Assembly: GCA_044506615.1 (NCBI GenBank)
Contig: JBIQKJ010000005.1
Coordinates: 568-64,567 of the forward strand
Origin: Chloroflexota bacterium
GTDB taxonomy: Bacteria; Chloroflexota; Limnocylindria; Limnocylindrales; CSP1-4
DNA length: 64,000 nt
Direction: 5' to 3'
Part shown: in pieces, positions 23,585-32,155 of the stretch
How the letters are laid out: every line of letters begins with the position of its first letter
Numbering within the stretch: position 1 is the first letter of the stretch
The notes under the pieces: model-generated
The model's input: the letters and a program-made list of their open reading frames with translations, nothing else
What the model was told of the DNA's origin: nothing
The model's database searches: none
Made by a program: the position numbers and the translations under genes

Positions 23585-23945
23585 GGCGCCGATGGTAGCG
23601 CCGGGAGCATGGCACTCGGGCGGTGCCCGCGGACACCGGAATGCGGGCGTCCGGTGCGATTACCTACGGTAATGGTCAATCTGACGTAGTTGATTCGACC
23701 GATCGGACCCGTACCATTGGCCGTCCATTCGCGGACGTCGGCGTCATCGGCGTACGCAACAGAGGGTGCATCGGGGGCCGGGTCCTCCGCGGCGGTCGCA
23801 CTTTCAGCACTCATCGCTCTCGTTTTCGACCGTTCGCCGCGCGTCTTCGGCCAACCGCCGTTCCTGCAGCCCAGAGCGGAACGGTGCCGGGGGGTTGGGG
23901 CCGTGTTCCCGCGGCCGTCGGTGCACCGGGGAAGTGAGGACTCTG

Positions 23946-26900
23946 GTGCATCCACTCGCCGCCCGCCGATCCGTCACGTTGATTCGACTGCTCGCCTTCG
24001 TGCAGGTCTTCCTGCTCGTCGCGAGCCTCTTCGCGCCCGTCGCAGCGCTGGCCACCGAGCCGAGCGCGGATCCGGGCGGGTCTTCCGCGCCCTCCACCGA
24101 GCCGAGCGCAGAGCCGACCGCCGAGCCCACACCCGAAGCGACGCCGGAGCCCACTCCCGCGGCGTCGGTCGAGCCTGATCCGACGACGCAGCCCTCGCCG
24201 ACAGCCGAGCCTGACCCGACGCCCGAGCCCGAGCCCACGCCGGCCGGCGAGCCCGCACCCGCCGATCCTGAACCGACCTCGAACCCCGATCCGACGACCC
24301 TACCGGAGCCGAGCGCGCCGTCATTCGAGCCGTCTCCATCGACCGCCGCGCCGACGATCGCGAGCGACCTCGCGGACTACCCGCCCGGCGGCCTCGTCAC
24401 GCTCACCGGCTCCAACTGGCAGCCGGGCGAGACCGTGAACATCTTCGTCAACGACGACTGGGGCAGCTCCTGGAGCCGGAATGTGGACGTCGTCGCTGAT
24501 GCGGACGGCAACATCACGGACCAGTTCAACCTCCCGAATTGGTTTGTGGCGGAATACGCCGTAGTCGCGACAGGAGAGGTTTACGGGCGCGCGTATACCC
24601 GCTTCACCGATGGCAACGTCAAGGTGGAGGTCGAGCCGACAAACGTAACGGCGTCGATTTCCGCTGCGCTGTACTCAGGGGCAGGGTGCTCTGGCACCGC
24701 AACTTCGAAGAGCGCGCCGGGCACGATCGGCGTGGGCTCCAGCGAGTCAGTGAGGCTTGACGCGGCCGCGACGGGGGCCGCCTCGGTTGCTCCGGTCAGC
24801 CGTGCATTCGCCGGATGGACCGTCGAGTCGGGTGCCAGCTATGTCCTGATTCCCGGAACGAACGGTCGAAGCATCTGCATCTCGGGCAACTTCAATGGCA
24901 GCCGGACGGCTACCGCCTCGTACGATTCGGCCACGAACGCTCCGCCCGTAGCGAACGCTGACTCGTATTCGACGAACGAGGACGCGACCCTCACCGTCCC
25001 TGCGCCCGGTGTGCTCGGCAATGACAGCGACGCCAATGGCGACCCGCTGACCATCGCCGCGCCGCGCCCGGCCTCGGGGCCCGCGAACGGCTCCCTCACG
25101 TTGAGCGCGGACGGCTCGTTCACCTACACCCCGAACGCCAACTTCCACGGCACCGACACGTTCACGTACCAGGCGAACGACGGCAAGGTGAACTCTGCTT
25201 CGGCGGCCACCGTGACCATCACCGTCAACCCGGTGGACGATGCGCCGACAGCCGTCGGGGACAGCGCGACAGTGGCCGAAGACTCGGGCACGAACGCGAT
25301 TAACGTGCTTGCGAACGACACCGACGTCGACGGGGGCCCGAAGGCGATCGCATCGGTCACACAAGGGGCCGACGGGTCGGTCGCGATTACGGGCGGCGGG
25401 ACGGGCCTGACCTACGCGCCCGATGGGAACTTCTGCGGCGCCGACTCGTTCAGCTACACGCTCAACGGCGGTTCGACGGCGACCGTCTCCGTCGCGGTGA
25501 CGTGTCTGAATGACGACCCTGTCGCGAATGACGACAGCACGACGGTGGACGAGGACTCGGGCGCAAACGTCGTCGACGTCCTCGCCAACGACACGACCGG
25601 CCCGGACGTCGGGGAGACGCTCGAGGTCACGCTGGTGACCCAGGGCACGCATGGGACCGTCGCGGCCACGGTCGGTGGCGGAAGCGTTACCTACACGCCC
25701 GACGAGAACTACTTCGGCACCGACAGCTTCACCTATACGGTTTCGGACGGCAATGGCGGCATGGCCTCCGCGTCGGTCGACGTCACGGTCTCGCCGGTCA
25801 ACGACGCGCCGGTCGCCGACGACGACACGGCCAGCACGGCCGAGGACACCGCGCTCCTCATCGACCCGGCCGACCTGCTCGCCGGCGATAGCGACGTCGA
25901 CGGAAACACGCTCGTGGTGTCGGCCGTCGGCTCGGCGACGAACGGAACCGTCGAGCTCCTGACCGACGGCCCGGAGGCCGGCAAGATCCGGTTCGTCCCT
26001 GCCCCGAACTACAACGGCGCGGGCGCGAGCTTCGAGTACACCGTGAGCGACGGCGACCTGACCGATGTCGGCCTGGTCACGGTCACGGTCACGTCGGCCA
26101 ACGACGCGCCCGAGCTCGCCGCCGTCGGCGACCAGGTCGTCGACGAGGAGACCAATCTCTCGTTCGACGCGGACGCCGCCGACGTCGACGGGACGGACAC
26201 ACTGACCTTTAGTCTGGTCGGCGCCCCGGCAGCGGCGTCGATCGACCCGGCGACCGGCGTCTTCAGCTGGACCCCGGCCGAGGCCGACGGTCCCGACACC
26301 TTCACGTTCGACGTCTGCGCGACCGACGACGGTACGCCCCCGCTCGAGGACTGCGAGACCATTACGGTCACGGTCAACGAGGTCAACGTCGCGCCGGTGC
26401 TGGGTGCGGTCGGTGATCGCACGGTCGACGAAGGGTCGGAGCTCGCGTTCACGGCGACCGCGACCGACGCCGACATCCCGGCCAACACGCTCACGTTCAG
26501 CCTGTCGGGGGCGCCAGAGGGCGCGAGCATCGACCCGGACACGGGCGAATTCAGCTGGACCCCGACCGACGACGGCACCTACACGGTGACGGTCACCGTG
26601 ACGGACGACGGGACCGGCACCCTGTCCGACAGCGAGACGATCACGATCACCGTCGACAACGTCGCGCCGGTCGTCACGGCACCCGCCGATCAGTCGACCG
26701 GCGAGGCGACCAGCACGAGCTTCGACCTCGGCGGCTTCACTGACCCCGGCACGGACGGGCCATGGTCGGTGACGATCGACTGGGGTGACGGCTCGACCGA
26801 CACCGCCTTCTCCGAGGCGGCCCCCGGCGCCATCGCCGACCAGTTCCACACGTATGCGGACGACGGCACCTACACGGTCACGATCACGGTGCTCGAGGAC

Positions 26901-28781
26901 GGCGACGTCGCCTCGGATTCCGCGACCTTCTCGGTGACCGTCGCCAACCTGGCGCCGACCATCAGCTCGGTTGTCGCCTCGCCGACCTCGGTCGACGAGG
27001 GCGGCTCCACCACCGTGACGGTCACCGCGTCGGACCCCGCGGGTCCGGCTGACCCACTGGCATACGAGTTCGACTGCGACGGCGACGGCAGCTACGACGT
27101 CGGCCCACAGCCCGGCAACAGCACGAGCTGCCTGATGCCGGACGGCGACGCGACCGGCATGGTTGGGGTGCGCGTGTCGGACGGCGACGGCGGAACCGAC
27201 ACCGACGCTGTTGACGTCGTCGTCGCCAACGTCGCGCCGGAGATCGTCACGAGCGCGGATGCCTCGACCCCCGAGGGTTCGACGTTCACGCTGACGCTCA
27301 GTACGGTCATCGACCCCGGCCAGGACACCGTCACGGCCTGGGAGATCGAGTGGGGCGATGGGGCGTCCACGACGGGCCTCGGGTCGCCTGCGTTCACCGA
27401 CCAGCCGCACGTCTACGCGGACGGGCCTGCGTCGTACACGATCGACGTCTACCTGACCGACGAGGACGGCACGCATCTCGCGTCCACCCGCTCGGTCACG
27501 GTCGTCAACGTCGCCCCGACGGTCACCCTGGCCCCGACCAACGAGACCTCGGTCGACGAGGGCAGCCAGCACACGTACAGCTTCACCACGAGCGACCCGG
27601 GCGAGGACGCGTTCGCGCTCCTCGGGGCCAGCTGCGGCAGCGCCGGCAGCCAGGTCGGGACGGCCACCTTCGACGCGGCCACCGGCGCCGGCAGCTTCGT
27701 CTGCTCGTTCGCCGACGGCCCCGCCTCGAGCACGGTCTCGGTCCAGGTCGAGGATGAGGACGGCGCGGACAGCAACACCGCGACCCAGACGGTCACGGTC
27801 GCCAACGTCGCGCCAGTTGTCGTCGCTCCGGCTGCGCAGTCGGCCGACGAGGGTGAGAACAAGACCTGGAACCTCGGCACCTTCACAGATGCCGGCGTCG
27901 ACGACGATCCCTGGACCGTGAGCGTCGACTGGGGTGACGGCAGCCCGACCGAGAGCCGACCCAACGCAGGAAGCGCGGGTTCGCTCGGAACGGCGAGCCA
28001 CAGCTACGGCGACAACGGGACGTACACCGCCACGGTCACAGTGACGGACAAGGACGGCGCCGCCACCAACGGGACCTTCACGGTCACCGTCGGCAGCGTT
28101 GCGCCGGTGGCATCGAACCTGACTGTCACCGTCGATCCCGTCACCGGGATCACGTCGGCCACGATCGATTACAGCGATCCGGGCTGGCTCGACACCCACA
28201 CCGCGTCATTCACCTGGAACGGCGGCGCACCGGTCGCCGGGGTTGTCACGCCCACCGCCGGCACAAGCACTCGGCCGGGGCCAGTGAGCGGAGCGGCGAC
28301 TGGAACCACCCGGCTCCCCCCCGGTTGCTATCAGCTCATCGTGACCGCGACGATCACGGACGACGACGGAGCGAGCCACACCATCAGCCGGACCATTGCG
28401 AACACCGACGTCTACCTGGCGTCCTTCAACGCGCCCATCAAGAGCAACGAGCGGAACATCGCGAAGTACGGCAACGTCGTGCCGGTCAAGGTCCAGCTCG
28501 CAAGCTCGTGCTTCCCCGGTACGACGACGACCGAGCCCACCTTGCACCTCACCATCGCCAACGGCGACGACAGCATGGATCCGACAGCAGTCGAGGTCAT
28601 CACTGCGACGAGCGTCAGCGGCGCGGACACGGGGACCCAGATGCGTACGGCCGGCGACGCCTACATCTACAACCTCTCGACCAAGCAGATGAAGGCGGGC
28701 CAGGAATACACGATCCGTGTTCGGGTCGGCACGACCTCCGGTCCGATCATCCTCCGCGCGCTCTTCCAGCCGAAGAAGTAG
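23946..28781 (+). CDS. Large secreted surface protein/adhesin: signal peptide, PEPT linker, Big_9/cadherin-like repeats, putative Ig domains, PKD-like repeats, C-terminal PxKF-type domain
   Basis: Hydrophobic signal; repeated NxAPVAxDD, VLANDTD, IDPxTGxFSWTP, DWGDG, NVAPxV; C-terminal FNAPIK...KYGNVVPVKVQL. GAGGA RBS before GTG 23946. Confidence 0.9.
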   Translation: MHPLAARRSVTLIRLLAFVQVFLLVASLFAPVAALATEPSADPGGSSAPSTEPSAEPTAEPTPEATPEPTPAASVEPDPTTQPSPTAEPDPTPEPEPTPAGEPAPADPEPTSNPDPTTLPEPSAPSFEPSPSTAAPTIASDLADYPPGGLVTLTGSNWQPGETVNIFVNDDWGSSWSRNVDVVADADGNITDQFNLPNWFVAEYAVVATGEVYGRAYTRFTDGNVKVEVEPTNVTASISAALYSGAGCSGTATSKSAPGTIGVGSSESVRLDAAATGAASVAPVSRAFAGWTVESGASYVLIPGTNGRSICISGNFNGSRTATASYDSATNAPPVANADSYSTNEDATLTVPAPGVLGNDSDANGDPLTIAAPRPASGPANGSLTLSADGSFTYTPNANFHGTDTFTYQANDGKVNSASAATVTITVNPVDDAPTAVGDSATVAEDSGTNAINVLANDTDVDGGPKAIASVTQGADGSVAITGGGTGLTYAPDGNFCGADSFSYTLNGGSTATVSVAVTCLNDDPVANDDSTTVDEDSGANVVDVLANDTTGPDVGETLEVTLVTQGTHGTVAATVGGGSVTYTPDENYFGTDSFTYTVSDGNGGMASASVDVTVSPVNDAPVADDDTASTAEDTALLIDPADLLAGDSDVDGNTLVVSAVGSATNGTVELLTDGPEAGKIRFVPAPNYNGAGASFEYTVSDGDLTDVGLVTVTVTSANDAPELAAVGDQVVDEETNLSFDADAADVDGTDTLTFSLVGAPAAASIDPATGVFSWTPAEADGPDTFTFDVCATDDGTPPLEDCETITVTVNEVNVAPVLGAVGDRTVDEGSELAFTATATDADIPANTLTFSLSGAPEGASIDPDTGEFSWTPTDDGTYTVTVTVTDDGTGTLSDSETITITVDNVAPVVTAPADQSTGEATSTSFDLGGFTDPGTDGPWSVTIDWGDGSTDTAFSEAAPGAIADQFHTYADDGTYTVTITVLEDGDVASDSATFSVTVANLAPTISSVVASPTSVDEGGSTTVTVTASDPAGPADPLAYEFDCDGDGSYDVGPQPGNSTSCLMPDGDATGMVGVRVSDGDGGTDTDAVDVVVANVAPEIVTSADASTPEGSTFTLTLSTVIDPGQDTVTAWEIEWGDGASTTGLGSPAFTDQPHVYADGPASYTIDVYLTDEDGTHLASTRSVTVVNVAPTVTLAPTNETSVDEGSQHTYSFTTSDPGEDAFALLGASCGSAGSQVGTATFDAATGAGSFVCSFADGPASSTVSVQVEDEDGADSNTATQTVTVANVAPVVVAPAAQSADEGENKTWNLGTFTDAGVDDDPWTVSVDWGDGSPTESRPNAGSAGSLGTASHSYGDNGTYTATVTVTDKDGAATNGTFTVTVGSVAPVASNLTVTVDPVTGITSATIDYSDPGWLDTHTASFTWNGGAPVAGVVTPTAGTSTRPGPVSGAATGTTRLPPGCYQLIVTATITDDDGASHTISRTIANTDVYLASFNAPIKSNERNIAKYGNVVPVKVQLASSCFPGTTTTEPTLHLTIANGDDSMDPTAVEVITATSVSGADTGTQMRTAGDAYIYNLSTKQMKAGQEYTIRVRVGTTSGPIILRALFQPKK

Positions 28782-28794
28782 CCGACTGTCAACG

Positions 28795-28836
28795 ATGCCG
28801 TTCGGGACCGGACAGGGTCCGTGTCCCGAACGGCGT
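28795..28836 (+). terminator. Hairpin after the adhesin gene
   Basis: ATGCCGTTCGGGAC-CGGAC-AGG-GTCCG-T-GTCCCGAACGGCGT. Confidence 0.7.
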
Positions 28837-28950
28837 ATTCAGTATCAGGAATGGATTTCGCCCTCAGCACGTTCGACCCTGGGGCGATGCGGGCGATTCG
28901 GGCGGAGGGTCACGCTCGTTGAGCGCGATTCCGATGAACCGTTGGGAATA
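28836..28950. repeat. 115-bp imperfect palindromic repeat, copy 1
   Basis: TATTC-N7-GGAATGGATTT...CTCAGCACGTTCGACCC...GAGGGTCACGCT.GTTGAGCGCGATTCCGATGAA-N7-GAATA. Confidence 0.92.
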
Positions 28951-29036
28951 GCCGCTGGGAGGGGACCTGGTGACCGGACGACTGCCCGCGCGTCCGGGAT
29001 AACCAGCCGTGAAGGGCCGTCCGCTATATACGCCAC

Positions 29037-29867
29037 ATGCGTGCACATCCCGGCCCGTCCCGAGGTCTCGACGCCGAGGTCGGCGGACTCATCCGCACCG
29101 TGCGCGAGGCCATCGGCTGGTCACAGCGGGACCTCGGCCGAAGGATCGGTCGGTCACAAGCTTGGGTATCGAAGGCGGAGCGGGCACGGCTCTCCGGTCT
29201 GACGGTCCGCATGGTCGAGCTGGTGCTCGGCGCGATGGGCGCGCGCCTCGAACTCGGCCTTCGGGCGCCGTTCCTGTCCGACCGGCGCCGGCAACGGGAG
29301 CCGGTCCATTCGCGAATGGGCGGGTATGTCGCGAACCGGCTCCGCGCCGACGGATGGTGGGTCGAGACCGAGGTCGAGATCGGCGGCGCCGGTGGCAAGG
29401 GCTGGATCGACGTTCTGGCGTGGCATCCCGAGACCGGTCTCCTGCTCGTGATCGAGCTGAAGACCGAGATTCACGACCTGGGCGCGATCCAGCGCTCGTT
29501 GGCGTGGTACGAGCGCGCGGCCATCGAGGCCGCGAGACGCTTCGGGTGGCGGCCGCGACACGTGCATGGCGCGCTCCTGCTCCTTGCGACGGTAGAGAAC
29601 GACCGTCGAGCGACCGACAATGGCTCGGCCCTCGGCGTCGCGTTTCCCGTCCGCGCCGCCGTGCTGAGCGAGACGGTACGGACGGGCCGGCCTCCCGCGG
29701 AGACCGGCCGCTCGGTGGCCATGGTGGATCCGCGCGCGCGCCGGGTGGGCTGGGTCCGTCCGCTGCGACTCGACGGACGTCGGACGCTCGCCCGGTACGA
29801 GGACTACGCGGACTTCGTCAGGTCATCATCGAGAGCGGGTACCCGCCGGCGCCGGAACGCCGCCTGA
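29037..29867 (+). CDS. XRE-family HTH fused to a PD-(D/E)xK nuclease-like domain
   Basis: HTH (RTVREAIGWSQRDLGRRIGRSQAWVSKAE), then ETEVE...GWIDVLAW...VIELK. TATATA -10 box 6 nt upstream (leaderless). Confidence 0.85.
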   Translation: MRAHPGPSRGLDAEVGGLIRTVREAIGWSQRDLGRRIGRSQAWVSKAERARLSGLTVRMVELVLGAMGARLELGLRAPFLSDRRRQREPVHSRMGGYVANRLRADGWWVETEVEIGGAGGKGWIDVLAWHPETGLLLVIELKTEIHDLGAIQRSLAWYERAAIEAARRFGWRPRHVHGALLLLATVENDRRATDNGSALGVAFPVRAAVLSETVRTGRPPAETGRSVAMVDPRARRVGWVRPLRLDGRRTLARYEDYADFVRSSSRAGTRRRRNAA

Positions 29868-29878
29868 GGCGGTGCCGG

Positions 29879-29993
29879 TATTCCCAACGGGGAATGGATT
29901 TGGCGCTCAGCACGTTCGACCCCTGCTCGAAACGGGCGATCCGGGCAGAGGGTCACGCTTGTTGCGTGCGATTCCGATGAATCGTGGCGAATA
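29879..29993. repeat. 115-bp imperfect palindromic repeat, copy 2
   Basis: Same core and same length as copy 1. Confidence 0.92.
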
Positions 29994-30036
29994 TCCGGGT
30001 CGGGCTGCGCCGGACCGCCGCCTGAGGCGGTGAGAG

Positions 30037-30151
30037 CATTCCCAACGGGGAATGGATTTGGCGCTCAGCACGTTCGACCCTTGCCCGATAGCGGCGATCC
30101 GGGCAGAGGGTCACGCTTGTTGAGCGCGATTCCGATGAATCGTGGCGAATA
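30037..30151. repeat. 115-bp imperfect palindromic repeat, copy 3 (158-bp tandem period with copy 2)
   Basis: Near-identical to copy 2. The flank CGCCGCCTGAGGCGGTG is also duplicated. Confidence 0.92.
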
Positions 30152-30191
30152 CCGGGTCGGGCCGCACCAGGCGCGACGGCCCGCGCTTCGT

Positions 30192-31052
30192 TCAGGGCGC
30201 CTTCGGATTGTAGAAGCGGCAGCGGTCGGCGAGCGGGCAGCGTTCGTGCTCGGGGCGGAGCGCGTGGCAAATCTTCCGACCGTGCTGGATGAGGTTCACG
30301 TGCGCCTCGTACATCTCGTCCGGCTCGAACAGCCCGAGCACGATGTCGTGCGCCTGGTCGATCGGCAGCTTCGGCGGTAGCAGCCCGACCCGCCGCATGA
30401 CGCGGTCCACATGGCGGTCGATCGGGAACAGCGGTTGGCCGAAGTAGAACAGCAACAGGATCGAGGCCGTCTTCTTGCCGACCCCGGGGATCGCGGTGAG
30501 CCAGTCGCGCGCCTCGAGCGCGGTCATCTCGCCGAGGAACTCGAGCGAATAGTCGCCGTGCGCCTCGCGGATCCGGCGGAGCGTGGCCTGGAGCCGGGGC
30601 GCCTTCTGGTTCGCGAGGCCGCCGGGCCGGATGACGTCGGTCAGCTCCTCGATCGGCGCGAACTCGACGCGCTCCCAGTCGGGTGGCGCACCGTCCGGCA
30701 GCCCGACCCCGCCCCAGCCCTCGCCTGGAAGGTGACGCTCGGACGGCAGCCCTGATGGGTATGCCTCGCGCAGCGCCTGGAAGGCAACCTCGGCGTTCAC
30801 GTCGGCGCTGTTCTGGGTGAGGATCGTGAGGATGAGCTGGCTCGTCGGGTCGAGGCCGGGCTCGCGCACCGGGTGGCCGTACAGCGCGGCGAGCTGCTCG
30901 AGCGTGAACTGGACGAGCCCCGGCCGATACCGCTCGAGCCGCTTGGCATAGCTCGCGGCCGGGTTCGAGAACTTGCGCTTCTTCGGTCGGGGCCGCCGGG
31001 CGACGGTCCGCGCTCTTGCGGCGGACGCCTTCGGCGGATGGCTGGCGCTCAC
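30192..31052 (-). CDS. nth: Endonuclease III-like HhH-GPD DNA glycosylase
   Basis: LILTILTQNS, HhH IPGVGKKTA, FPIDRHV, C-terminal Fe-S loop. GTGA overlap with the upstream gene. Confidence 0.88.
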   Translation of the reverse strand: MSASHPPKASAARARTVARRPRPKKRKFSNPAASYAKRLERYRPGLVQFTLEQLAALYGHPVREPGLDPTSQLILTILTQNSADVNAEVAFQALREAYPSGLPSERHLPGEGWGGVGLPDGAPPDWERVEFAPIEELTDVIRPGGLANQKAPRLQATLRRIREAHGDYSLEFLGEMTALEARDWLTAIPGVGKKTASILLLFYFGQPLFPIDRHVDRVMRRVGLLPPKLPIDQAHDIVLGLFEPDEMYEAHVNLIQHGRKICHALRPEHERCPLADRCRFYNPKAP

Positions 31053-32155
31053 AGGAGCGAGACTAACCGCCCGATCCGCTCCCCGCATCGCTCGAGCGGC
31101 GCCGTTCCCGCGGCCATCGCCTCCTCGACGGTCTGCGGCCGCTCGACGACCGGCACCACGACCACCCCGAGGGCGCCGAGCGCCTCGATCCCCTCGACCT
31201 CCACGCCGCCACCGACGGCCACGCAGCGCTTCCCGGCAGCGTGCGCGCGCTGCGCGACGCCGAGCGCCGTCTTCCCGAACGCGGTCTGACGGTCGATCCG
31301 TCCCTCCCCGGTGATCACGAGGTCGGCCGAGGCGAGCTTGCCCGCGAAGTCCGTCAGCTCCATGACGAGCTCGATCCCGGGCTGGAGCGCGAACGACCGG
31401 AACCGATCCTGGACGGTCAGCAGCGCGAACCCGACGCCGCCGGCAGCGCCGGCGCCCGGTGTCTCGCGCTCGTCCCGCCCGACGGCCGCACCGAGGTCGT
31501 CGGCATAGCGCGCGAGATGCGCATCGAGCTCCGCCACCTGCTCGGGTGTGGCGCCCTTCTGGGGACCGTAGGTCGCGGCCGCGCCACGCTCCCCGAGGAG
31601 GGGATTCGTGACGTCGCAGGCGACGCGCACGTCGACGCCGTCGAGGAACGACAGCGCGTCGAGGTGGAGGTAGCCGTCCCGATCGGCGTCTCCCCGACGC
31701 ACGCCCAGCGCCTCGAGGATCCCGAACCCGCCGTCGGTCGTCGCGCTGCCCCCGATCCCGAGCGTGATCTCCTCGACACCCGACTCGATGACCGCCCGCA
31801 GCACCTCGCCGGTGCCGTAGGTCGTGGCGCCCGCCGGGTCGCGCTCGTCCGCGCCGAGCCGGGACAGCCCGGACGCCTCGGCGAGCTCGACGACGGCACG
31901 GCGGCCGTCGGTCGAGCGGAGCCAGCGCGCGGTGATCGGTCGGCCGATCGGGTCCGTCGCCGGCGTCTCCTGCCACTCCCAGCCACCGGCCGCCGCGACC
32001 GCGACGAGCGTGCCCTCGCCGCCGTCCGCGAGCGGCGACAGCAGCACCGTGTCCCCGGGACGCGCCCGGGACCACCCGGTCGCCAGCGCCCCCGCGACCT
32101 CGACCGAGGTGAGCGAGCCCTTGAACGAGTCGGGGGCGATGAGGACCGTGGCCAC
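31049..32155 (-). CDS. glxK: Glycerate kinase (GlxK/GarK class)
   Basis: IAPDSFKGSL, PLADGGEG, GIGGSATTDGG, GAGAAGG, ITGEGRID.QT..GK. Confidence 0.95.
   Translation of the reverse strand: MATVLIAPDSFKGSLTSVEVAGALATGWSRARPGDTVLLSPLADGGEGTLVAVAAAGGWEWQETPATDPIGRPITARWLRSTDGRRAVVELAEASGLSRLGADERDPAGATTYGTGEVLRAVIESGVEEITLGIGGSATTDGGFGILEALGVRRGDADRDGYLHLDALSFLDGVDVRVACDVTNPLLGERGAAATYGPQKGATPEQVAELDAHLARYADDLGAAVGRDERETPGAGAAGGVGFALLTVQDRFRSFALQPGIELVMELTDFAGKLASADLVITGEGRIDRQTAFGKTALGVAQRAHAAGKRCVAVGGGVEVEGIEALGALGVVVVPVVERPQTVEEAMAAGTAPLERCGERIGRLVSLL

Follow-up and report, generated by a model that had tools for sequence, protein, structure and literature searches.

A nuclease gene flanked by long palindromic repeats in Limnocylindria: a candidate REP/RAYT-like partnership

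Long palindromic intergenic repeats such as ERIC, Correia, RPE and similar elements are common in bacteria. We know of no mobilizing enzyme for most of them, and to our knowledge the sole well-understood partnership between a repeat and an enzyme is that of REP/REPIN sequences with RAYT proteins, which uses HUH chemistry on single-stranded DNA. The locus described here raises the question of whether a nuclease of another type can take the place of the HUH enzyme. It was found in a 64,000-nucleotide stretch of DNA (the window, to which positions refer) from the genome of a soil Chloroflexota (Limnocylindria), designated G000. The module consists of one gene for a helix-turn-helix (HTH) protein with a predicted nuclease fold and three palindromic units. 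This layout matches that of REP/RAYT systems except for the enzyme, and it may reveal how long bacterial palindromes spread.

Layout of the locus

The gene (29037-29867, + strand) has one palindromic unit on its 5′ side and two on its 3′ side, which a repeat finder reports as three direct copies. When the boundaries are set by the conserved ends GTATTCC...GGAATAC, each unit measures 117 nt. Unit L (28835-28951, +; GTATTCA...GGGAATAG) lies upstream of the gene, unit R1 (29878-29994, +) begins 11 nt past the stop codon, and unit R2 occupies 30036-30152 (+). The first-pass annotation had described the units as 115 bp long, one to the left of the gene and two to its right, and uniformly oriented; the layout and orientation are retained here, and the length is corrected. 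Each unit scores far higher on the + strand than on the − strand with a directional covariance model (111-119 vs 32-52 bits), so all three share one orientation, which is that of the gene. With the covariance model named R1, unit L scores 111 bits on the + strand and 32 bits on the − strand, and the + strand scores of units R1 and R2 are 116 and 119 bits.

The 5′ side of unit L is abutted by a GC-rich stem-loop (28797..28834, +), which is the terminator of an adhesin gene and has perfect 12-nt arms (28797-28808 / 28823-28834). The folding energy of the 40 nt 5′ of the unit is −32.6 kcal/mol. At the other end of the module lies nth (30192..30950, − strand), a convergent gene for endonuclease III that is a conserved syntenic neighbor outside the system and provides an orthology anchor.

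Every unit forms a single long imperfect hairpin (−50.8 kcal/mol and z = −2.6 for unit R1), and the + strand folds better than its complement (z = −2.6 vs −1.3). A perfect 12-bp inverted repeat around the gene, to which earlier attention had been drawn, is indeed exact (CCGTTGGGAATA 28939-28950 / TATTCCCAACGG 29879-29890). However, it carries no meaning of its own because it follows from the palindromic nature of the units, with the 3′ end of L facing the 5′ end of R1. Units R1 and R2, which are 91-94% identical, are a local tandem duplication and not separate insertions. The duplicated segment is 158 bp long (29849-29998 and 30007-30156, 91% identical), begins within the 3′ end of the gene and takes in a small hairpin, CCGCC-TGA-GGCGG (29860..29872, +), that holds the stop codon in its loop. 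Unit L is 84-86% identical to R1 and R2 and 65-77% identical to other genomic copies, and the likeness among the three is therefore not due to chance.

The conserved boxes of the element are the ATTCC ends, AT/AT and a CACGCTC/GAGCGTG core. Between species the two arms co-vary, with 73% paired compared with 58% in shuffles and none of 500 shuffles as high. Among the copies in G000, the pair count equals that of shuffles and chimeric arm combinations fold at least as well as native ones, so within-genome covariation was dropped as evidence and only covariation across species is used. RNAalifold recovered the invariant core stem alone from the 19 G000 copies. An Rfam search over positions 27500-31500 (E up to 1) gave no match, which indicates that the unit belongs to none of the described RNA families.

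The encoded protein

The open reading frame specifies 276 amino acids. Pfam, alignment and a structure model together divide the predicted product into an XRE-type HTH domain, a PD-(D/E)xK-fold nuclease domain and a conserved C-terminal extension. The HTH domain (residues ∼15-70; 29079..29246, +) is matched by Pfam HTH_31 (residues 15-61, 28.9 bits vs a cut-off of 27), HTH_37 and HTH_3. In a PDB profile search, the same part of the protein matches HipB, C-proteins (C.BclI) and SinR at E ∼1e-8.

The restriction-endonuclease-like core (residues 89-183; 29301..29585, +) was delimited by alignment columns, secondary structure and Foldseek. In the AlphaFold2 model (pLDDT 89.8), the core has the alpha-beta-beta-beta-alpha-beta order of PD-(D/E)xK nucleases, with helices at residues 89-104 and 148-168 and strands at 108-117, 120-130, 135-142 and 175-183. 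The top folds returned by Foldseek are the restriction-like endonuclease domain of the R2 retrotransposon, Can2 and AF1548 (E = 5e-5 to 1e-3). Four candidate catalytic residues, E112 (29370-29372), D125 (29409-29411), E140 (29454-29456) and K142 (29460-29462; all +), do not vary across 18 homologs (35-61% identity; alignment A4). On the basis of this fold and the D125/E140-x-K142 pattern, the protein is confidently predicted to belong to the PD-(D/E)xK superfamily.

Searches of the protein sequence against Pfam, NCBIfam, PADLOC and PDB gave HTH matches alone, with no sequence-level match for the nuclease fold. Pfam and further profile searches of the protein found no DDE, HUH or recombinase domain. 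The latter result agrees with the first-pass annotation, which had read the gene as an HTH joined to a PD-(D/E)xK nuclease without any of these other enzyme types. More than 500 homologs exist, and their sole annotation is 'XRE-family transcriptional regulator'.

A putative promoter for a leaderless mRNA (29009..29036, +) was recognized from the sequence and by box comparison with orthologs. A −10-like TATATA (29025-29030) stops 6 nt 5′ of the ATG, and a GTGAAG-type box lies ∼17 nt further upstream. Orthologs have a TAnnAT-like box 5-7 nt before the ATG, preceded by a GGTGAG or GGTAAG box. A leaderless transcript is plausible on these grounds.

Distribution of the gene and the palindromes

The G000 genome carries 19 copies of the unit at 16 intergenic loci, and all are exactly 117 nt long. 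They show no preference among convergent, tandem and divergent intergenic regions and combine invariant boxes with saturated spacers. Copies at different loci are 65-77% identical and their arms do not co-evolve within the genome, and there has thus been no recent burst. The conserved boxes look as if they have been maintained in place, a pattern that would suit binding sites no less than mobile elements. The sequence of the core heptamer, CACGCTC, is preserved although its orientation is flipped between G000 and another genome, G023, suggesting that it is read as duplex DNA. Placement is polar, with copies located 3′ of GC-rich stem-loops (p = 2e-5).

A paralog of the gene in G000 (C29:172058-172897) is flanked on both sides by a different hairpin family, called family 2, which is present at ∼57 loci and is much more abundant in this genome than the 117-bp unit. 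Both families are prone to form tandem arrays. Paralogs of the gene in G000 are at most 42% identical, and none of four distant short paralogs has repeats beside it. Family 2 is restricted to G000: an HMM gave no match in 80 loci of the gene subfamily, and BLAST gave none in congeners. Orthologs of the C29 clade in congeners have different flank families, and therefore hairpin specificity is not simply inherited.

The association was quantified across species with 80 species-level loci of the gene subfamily (453 kb) and a cross-species model, R2. Of 59 palindrome sites detected, 57 are within 350 bp of the gene, where ∼12% would be expected. A site is present at 38 of the 80 loci (upstream at 26, downstream at 26, on both sides at 16), and the R1 model gives the same picture. 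A model-free scan for 116-nt palindromes shows five- to sixfold enrichment to either side of the gene, in the bins that span 0-200 bp (23-30% next to the gene vs a background of ∼5% per 200-bp bin). Distances are also conserved among orthologs: the downstream unit starts between 23 nt before and 27 nt after the end of the open reading frame in 21 of 28 cases, and the upstream unit ends 20-120 nt 5′ of the gene start.

Among 151 genomes of the family, 29 have both gene and palindrome, 11 have the gene with no palindrome detected, 16 have the palindrome only and 95 have neither (odds ratio 15.7, Fisher p = 3e-11, for incomplete MAGs and with kinship ignored). After a profile search, 14 genomes with palindromes, including the single-contig G157, have short paralogs only. 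A sister family (f2) has neither gene nor palindrome. The hairpin type tracks the protein tree coarsely. Dispersed copies of the flank type occur at at least 14 loci in G023 (both gene flanks included) and at at least five loci in G002, where 10 matches count both strands; G018 and G020 have at least four extra copies each. The orthologs in G001 and G014 have flank units with no dispersed copies in the genome. Flank repeats were counted with standard scoring on intergenic DNA. Counts from loose blastn (+1/−1) were discarded because 81% of control gene flanks also gave three or more matches, and palindrome self-BLAST, which was too strict, was replaced by a gapless symmetry scan. Similarity between the upstream and downstream flanks of a locus exceeded the 99% null at 7 of 65 loci, a weak test.

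By tblastn, nth and the glycerate kinase gene adjoin the gene at 21 of the 80 loci, in 21 species of several genera, and this shared neighborhood shows that the module is inherited vertically. Each genome has one to three members of the gene subfamily, which occupies several paralogous locations. Copy number of the palindromes among congeners ranges from 0 to more than 100, and copies C14:237250 and C30:249016 of G000 are missing from the orthologous intergenic regions of congeners. In the congener G004 the whole module is absent from its site, with the adhesin gene joined straight to nth, and there are no such palindromes anywhere in the genome. Parsimony favors an ancestral module that was lost in G004. 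A classical MITE is a deletion derivative of a DDE-transposase IS, with terminal inverted repeats, a target-site duplication and a parent IS that has the same ends. In comparison, the present elements have ends that are inverted repeats by construction, and the HTH–nuclease gene is the only gene that shares these ends. No target-site duplication of 3 bp or more was found at the copies, at most a possible TA within the conserved ends. No excision footprint is definable, and divergence obscures the exact points of insertion at empty sites.

The first-pass annotation had proposed a candidate mobile or selfish element, inserted at this site, in which flanking hairpins are paired, in the manner of REP/RAYT, with a restriction-like nuclease. 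A recent insertion must be given up in view of the nth linkage, whereas the pairing withstood each of the genome comparisons that the annotation had called for. Relatives in many species are flanked by cognate repeats and the C29 paralog has its own family; empty sites are seen both of individual palindromes and of the entire module; and repeat types agree coarsely with the protein tree. Orthologs are syntenic but they are flanked by repeats, and the repeats are scattered yet strongly tied to this protein subfamily.

A proposed partnership and competing explanations

A single-copy, vertically inherited nuclease gene thus lies between two copies of a 117-bp palindrome, other copies of which are dispersed in intergenic DNA. 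The explanation that we favor, at an even chance, is a partnership of the REP/RAYT kind ('REPtron-like') with a restriction-like nuclease as its enzyme. The HTH domain would recognize the boxes of the element (the ATTCC ends, AT/AT and the CACGCTC/GAGCGTG core) and the nuclease domain would cut the element as a hairpin or cruciform, so that the protein, acting in trans, mobilizes or maintains the dispersed copies. The pair that flanks the gene may be the ends of the ancestral unit and may also bear the promoter-proximal and terminator-proximal sites of the gene. New copies would land in one polarity, directly 3′ of pre-existing GC-rich stem-loops, and the R1/R2 tandem duplication and inversion between palindromic flanks could be by-products. 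More tentatively, the protein may stand for a hitherto unrecognized class of domesticated 'palindrome nucleases' (XRE-HTH plus PD-(D/E)xK) that mobilize and maintain intergenic palindromes of 117-200 bp in Limnocylindria by cutting the extruded cruciform or hairpin, with copies landing polarly by stem-loops.

Other scenarios also could explain parts of these data. The protein might only bind DNA, as an autoregulated transcription factor or as a nucleoid or architectural protein, and the palindromes would then be operators or dispersed sites that are under selection and are not moved. This fits the HTH as the sole domain detectable from sequence, the upstream unit beside a conserved promoter, the old copies with saturated spacers and invariant boxes that resemble purifying selection, and the apparent duplex reading of CACGCTC. 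We nonetheless consider it unlikely, if credible, because a pure regulator does not need nuclease residues that are invariant over deep divergence, the copies lie in all types of intergenic regions without bias, and 0 to more than 100 copies between congeners together with empty sites describe mobile DNA and not a regulon. It is rather improbable that gene and palindromes have no functional link, with independent MITE- or REP-like elements moved by another enzyme and the gene flanks serving as favored targets (stem-loops or existing copies). Target preference does not explain why units occur on both sides, with conserved spacing, across several paralog clades and dozens of species, it leaves the genome-level co-occurrence unexplained, and it gives no reason why other terminator-bearing genes lack such brackets (∼5% per bin, as against 23-30% at the gene). 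Moreover, a search for the Y1/RAYT domain (PF01797) found none in G000 and seven other palindrome-rich genomes, whereas 6 of 14 control genomes were positive. What speaks for independence is that copies lie 3′ of GC-rich stem-loops and the stop codon of the gene is within one, that both hairpin families form tandem arrays, that C29-clade orthologs carry families that differ by species, and that some genomes have palindromes with no full-length gene.

An autonomous selfish element, in which hairpin, gene and hairpin form a mobile transposon or homing-type cassette and solo palindromes are deletion derivatives like solo LTRs, has only a slim chance of being correct. Its flanks are direct repeats that are closer to each other than to other copies, the module is present in G000 and missing at the same site in G004, and the subfamily occupies several paralogous locations. 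But the same nth-linked site is occupied in 21 species, genomes hold one to three members, no near-identical gene copies or target duplications were seen, and loss in G004 from an ancestral state is the more parsimonious history. Very little probability attaches to an RNA partner, that is, to 117-nt units that are transcribed as structured RNAs (3′-UTR stabilizers, terminators or small RNAs) and bound or processed by the protein. The better folding of the + strand, the unit located directly 3′ of the stop codon and the presence among the best fold matches of Can2, reportedly an enzyme that cleaves both RNA and DNA, are compatible with such a role. However, the units match no Rfam family, have no conserved promoter of their own and are found in mixed orientation relative to neighboring genes, divergent promoter regions included; they are symmetric in the way of DNA palindromes, either strand fits the model, and XRE-type HTH domains bind duplex DNA.

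Several established identities were rejected. An integron attC cassette is defined by a promoterless open reading frame, a following hairpin with R″/R′ core sites (RYYYAAC...GTTRRRY) and membership of an array on which the IntI integrase acts. The module has GTATTCC/GGAATAC ends, promoter-like boxes on the gene and units that are found on both sides and dispersed singly. A type II restriction–modification system with a fused C-protein was dismissed because the module has no methyltransferase open reading frame and its neighbors are the adhesin gene, nth and the glycerate kinase gene. A toxin–antitoxin pair was also considered and rejected. The module is not an IS200/IS605 element, since PF01797 is absent, the gene is syntenic and paralogs are no more than 42% identical.

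The proposed partnership most closely resembles that of REP/REPIN sequences with the REP-associated tyrosine transposases of Pseudomonas, E. coli and other bacteria (PMC3116915; PMC3337134; bioRxiv 10.1101/2021.07.10.451892). In both, a single-copy, vertically inherited gene is flanked by a repeat that is also dispersed in intergenic regions, paralogs in one genome can have distinct repeat families, repeat sequences vary by species, and gene and repeats are jointly present or absent across genomes (29/11/16/95 here, with kinship ignored and with exceptions). The RAYT enzyme is an HUH/Y1 transposase (PF01797), in contrast to the XRE-HTH and PD-(D/E)xK domains of the present protein. REP repeats are 20-40 nt long with a GTAG/CGTC head and often form inverted doublets (REPINs), whereas the unit here is a single 117-nt imperfect palindrome, its flanking copies are direct repeats in the orientation of the gene, and its dispersed copies are far more diverged than typical REPIN populations. 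IS200/IS605 elements resemble the module in that imperfect hairpins enclose a nuclease gene, target duplications are not detectable and placement by a defined flank feature is polar. They are multi-copy and encode Y1 TnpA with or without TnpB; the module lacks Y1 and TnpB, is syntenic and single-copy, and has much longer hairpins.

ERIC/IRU elements of Enterobacteriaceae and Vibrio are ∼127-bp imperfect palindromes, and Correia, RPE and RUP elements are similar. The units resemble this class in length (∼110-150 bp), in forming one long imperfect hairpin in intergenic DNA, in copy numbers that are very uneven between related species, and in presence or absence at orthologous sites. We know of no gene dedicated to ERIC elements; the difference here is the nuclease gene embedded between two unit copies. 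The PD-(D/E)xK fold has precedents for DNA cutting during transposition, and we know of no partnership with dispersed palindromes for TnsA, YhgA/Rpn or the R2 endonuclease. Its occurrence in mobile elements includes Tn7 TnsA, YhgA/Rpn 'Transposase_31' and the R2 restriction-like endonuclease (PMC3424549; PDB 8gh6, 9dou, 8iby). The protein shares the restriction-endonuclease fold with these enzymes, the R2 domain being its best structural match, but it has no sequence-level relation to them and differs in its N-terminal XRE-HTH and family-specific C-terminal extension.

With a single protein of 276 aa, a single presumed substrate of 117 bp and three candidate catalytic residues, the system is readily open to experiment, and a DNA nuclease that is both structure-specific and sequence-guided could come out of it. 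Repeats that bracket the gene break short-read assemblies, which is relevant to the quality of Limnocylindria MAGs. If the partnership is real, hundreds of proteins from Chloroflexota metagenomes that now go by the name of 'XRE-family transcriptional regulators' would receive a corrected annotation, and ERIC-sized bacterial palindromes would have their first enzyme partner. The same arrangement would then have arisen independently with another catalytic fold, and REP/ERIC-like repeats would have a route of dispersal that does not depend mechanistically on HUH transposases.

Architecture of the module and fold of its protein

The module region spans positions 28797–30165 of the window. A 1671-aa adhesin gene is closed by its terminator stem-loop (28797–28834), which the palindromic unit L (28835–28951) follows directly. 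A short spacer then carries the −10-like box TATATA (29025–29030), which ends 6 nt 5′ of the ATG of a 276-aa ORF, the HTH-nuclease gene (29037–29867). The stop codon lies in the loop of a small hairpin, CCGCC-TGA-GGCGG (29860–29872). Two further units, R1 (29878–29994) and R2 (30036–30152), separate this hairpin from the 3′ end of the convergent endonuclease III gene, nth (from 30192). The upstream neighbor (23766–28781) encodes the adhesin, a secreted repeat protein with many tandem Asp-rich, cadherin/PKD-like modules; its gene is conserved in the congener G004 (3′-end DNA 74% identical).

Delimited by the conserved ends GTATTCC and GGAATAC, L, R1, and R2 are exactly 117 nt each, and a directional covariance model places all three on the + strand (111–119 bits versus 32–52 on the − strand). 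The 12-bp inner inverted repeat described in the first-pass annotation is real, but it merely reflects the fact that each unit is itself a palindrome. R1 and R2 belong to a 158-bp tandem duplication (29849–30156) that begins within the last codons of the gene, where the duplicated unit comprises the stop-codon hairpin and one palindrome. A comparable near-identical tandem pair is present elsewhere in G000, the MAG carrying the window (C4:30232 and C4:30460). Both in the window (29009–29036) and at orthologous loci, a −10-like box is conserved 5–7 nt 5′ of the ATG, with a GGTGAG/GGTAAG box ∼17 nt farther upstream, which suggests that the mRNA is leaderless.

The only Pfam detection in the 276-aa protein is an XRE-type HTH (HTH_31, 28.9 bits; cut-off 27), and NCBIfam, PADLOC, and PDB sequence searches return nothing beyond this domain. 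More than 500 homologs at 50%–65% identity occur in metagenomes. Homologs derive from Chloroflexota or Candidatus Limnocylindrales, and every annotation reads "XRE-family transcriptional regulator." Residues H91, E112, D125, E140, K142, W157, Y158, and R160 are invariant in an alignment of 18 homologs (35%–61% identity). An AlphaFold2 model (pLDDT 89.8) predicts an N-terminal HTH, a disordered linker, and an alpha-beta-beta-beta-alpha-beta core (residues 89–183). Outside the HTH, the PDB structures that Foldseek ranks best are Can2, AF1548, and the restriction-like endonuclease domain of R2 retrotransposons. Because of this core and these matches, the original reading of an HTH followed by a PD-(D/E)xK nuclease is supported at the fold level, and the protein is a predicted nuclease. 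Shorter HTH–PD-(D/E)xK paralogs (∼30%–36% identity) that lack the C-terminal extension form a broader family, with 1–8 copies per genome in G000 (C2, C3, and two on C30) and in every one of the 24 genomes sampled from the family.

Palindromes dispersed in genomes and beside the gene

Searches of the 3.48-Mb G000 with nhmmer and covariance model R1 (a model distinct from unit R1) revealed 19 copies of family 1, the repeat family of L, R1, and R2, at 16 loci on nine contigs. All are intergenic, with neighboring genes arranged convergently, in tandem, or divergently. Between loci, copies are 65%–77% identical and consist of invariant boxes with saturated spacers between them and no indels; arm co-evolution is not seen among the G000 copies, and the palindrome has no Rfam match. 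The copy at C28:43223 is preceded, ∼20 nt upstream, by a partial direct duplicate of the unit 5′ end (GGTATTCCCC; C28:43190–43225).

No target-site duplication was found at family-1 copies. In an exploratory test of the 19 copies, a few of which are non-independent, the 5′-flanking 40 nt form more stable folds than 40-mers from control intergenic DNA (−18.9 versus −13.7 kcal/mol, p = 2e-5), whereas the 3′ flanks show no excess of stability over controls. This asymmetry suggests polar placement of units just 3′ of pre-existing GC-rich stem-loops. L, R1, and R2 each follow a stem-loop in this manner.

Within G000, none of the four distant short paralogs has another family-1 copy or any other adjacent repeat beside it. 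This genome alone looked like a case of scattered repeats with no association to the protein, which the first-pass annotation had named as refuting its proposal. That impression is overturned by an association conserved in other genomes. Outside the genus, the homolog nearest in sequence (52% identity, in G023) has one unit per side and the same adjoining nth gene. With each species represented by one genome, a scan yielded 80 loci, labeled Chloroflexota/Limnocylindria except for three labeled Thermomicrobiales or Verrucomicrobiia (L052, L073, and L103). These three loci are typical of Limnocylindria, one of them being syntenic with nth, and their labels are probably binning or labeling errors.

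In the 453 kb of these loci, model R1 finds ∼33 sites, all except two beside the gene, and 57 of 59 sites of the cross-species model R2 are ≤350 bp from it. At least one model R2 site is present at 38 of the 80 loci (upstream at 26, downstream at 26, on both sides at 16), and the downstream unit usually starts between 23 nt before and 27 nt after the ORF end. A model-free scan detects 116-nt palindromes in 30% of downstream and 23% of upstream 0–200 bp bins, versus ∼5% elsewhere; taken together, the two methods identify a flanking palindrome at 54 of the 80 loci. Covariation between the arms is strong across species (73% paired versus 58% shuffled and 31%–40% slid). Genomes with the module can also contain dispersed copies of its hairpin: G018 and G020 have at least four dispersed copies each of their flank units, and no dispersed copies were found in G001 and G014.

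Hairpin families are also paralog-specific within one genome. A G000 paralog with 41% identity (C29:172058–172897), located outside the window, is flanked on both sides (C29:171812–173389) by family 2, a compound hairpin of 133–208 nt that differs from family 1. Family 2 ends in GCACGAATGTT...AACATTCGTGC, contains nested CTTCGG/CCGAAG sub-hairpins, and occurs at ∼57 loci, mostly in tandem arrays. With ∼57 loci distributed over a few thousand intergenic regions, we estimate the chance of such two-sided flanking at ∼3e-4. Family 2 occurs in G000 alone and is absent from congeners.

Inheritance and co-occurrence of gene and hairpin

The hairpin–gene–hairpin arrangement is a conserved, vertically inherited module. 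Both nth and a glycerate kinase gene adjoin the HTH-nuclease gene at 21 of 80 loci, as in the window. In the protein tree, nth-linked loci form a basal grade, nearly all with R2-type units, and a large derived clade has mostly other palindromes or none detected. The synteny and the basal position of these loci mean that the module, which the first-pass annotation described as inserted, did not enter this site recently. In the clade of L069 and L072, the entire module has been flipped at the same site with respect to its neighbors nth and the glycerate kinase gene, which fits recombination between palindromic flanks and is expected if the flanks recombine.

Gene and hairpin co-occur across 151 genomes of the family (odds ratio 15.7, Fisher p = 3e-11; palindrome model R2 E ≤ 1e-4, subfamily gene E ≤ 1e-35). 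The palindrome is present in 29 and absent from 11 genomes with the gene; the corresponding numbers without the gene are 16 and 95. A profile search moved two hairpin-only genomes to the gene-positive group, leaving 14 with short paralogs only, including the single-contig G157. The sister family f2 has neither gene nor palindrome.

Presence also differs between congeners. At the empty site in G004 (L139; G004:C11:18900–19500), the adhesin stop codon and terminator stem-loop are followed by ∼80 nt and then the nth stop codon. The entire 1.3-kb module, gene and palindrome both, is missing with no recognizable remnant, and no family-1-type palindrome occurs anywhere in the G004 genome. Likewise, two family-1 copies of G000 (C14:237250 and C30:249016) have no counterpart in G001, G003, G004, and G005 at the orthologous intergenic regions. 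No Y1/RAYT gene was found in eight palindrome-rich genomes.

A possible nuclease–hairpin partnership

We consider it an even call whether these observations reflect a REP/RAYT-like partnership built on the HTH-nuclease. The conserved association and co-occurrence are set against three points: the dispersed G000 copies are old, some genomes have palindromes without the full-length gene, and flank families differ between congeners. That the protein binds the palindromes without mobilizing them appears unlikely, and an insertion hot spot, an autonomous element, or an RNA partner is less probable still.

Our literature search found no report tying a PD-(D/E)xK/HTH protein to REP-like repeats. REP/RAYT systems pair dispersed palindromic repeats with a Y1 (HUH) transposase gene, and the present system lacks their defining enzyme and repeat features, although its working would be alike. 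The HTH-nuclease protein may recognize and cut the palindromes, and in this way would mobilize or maintain them.
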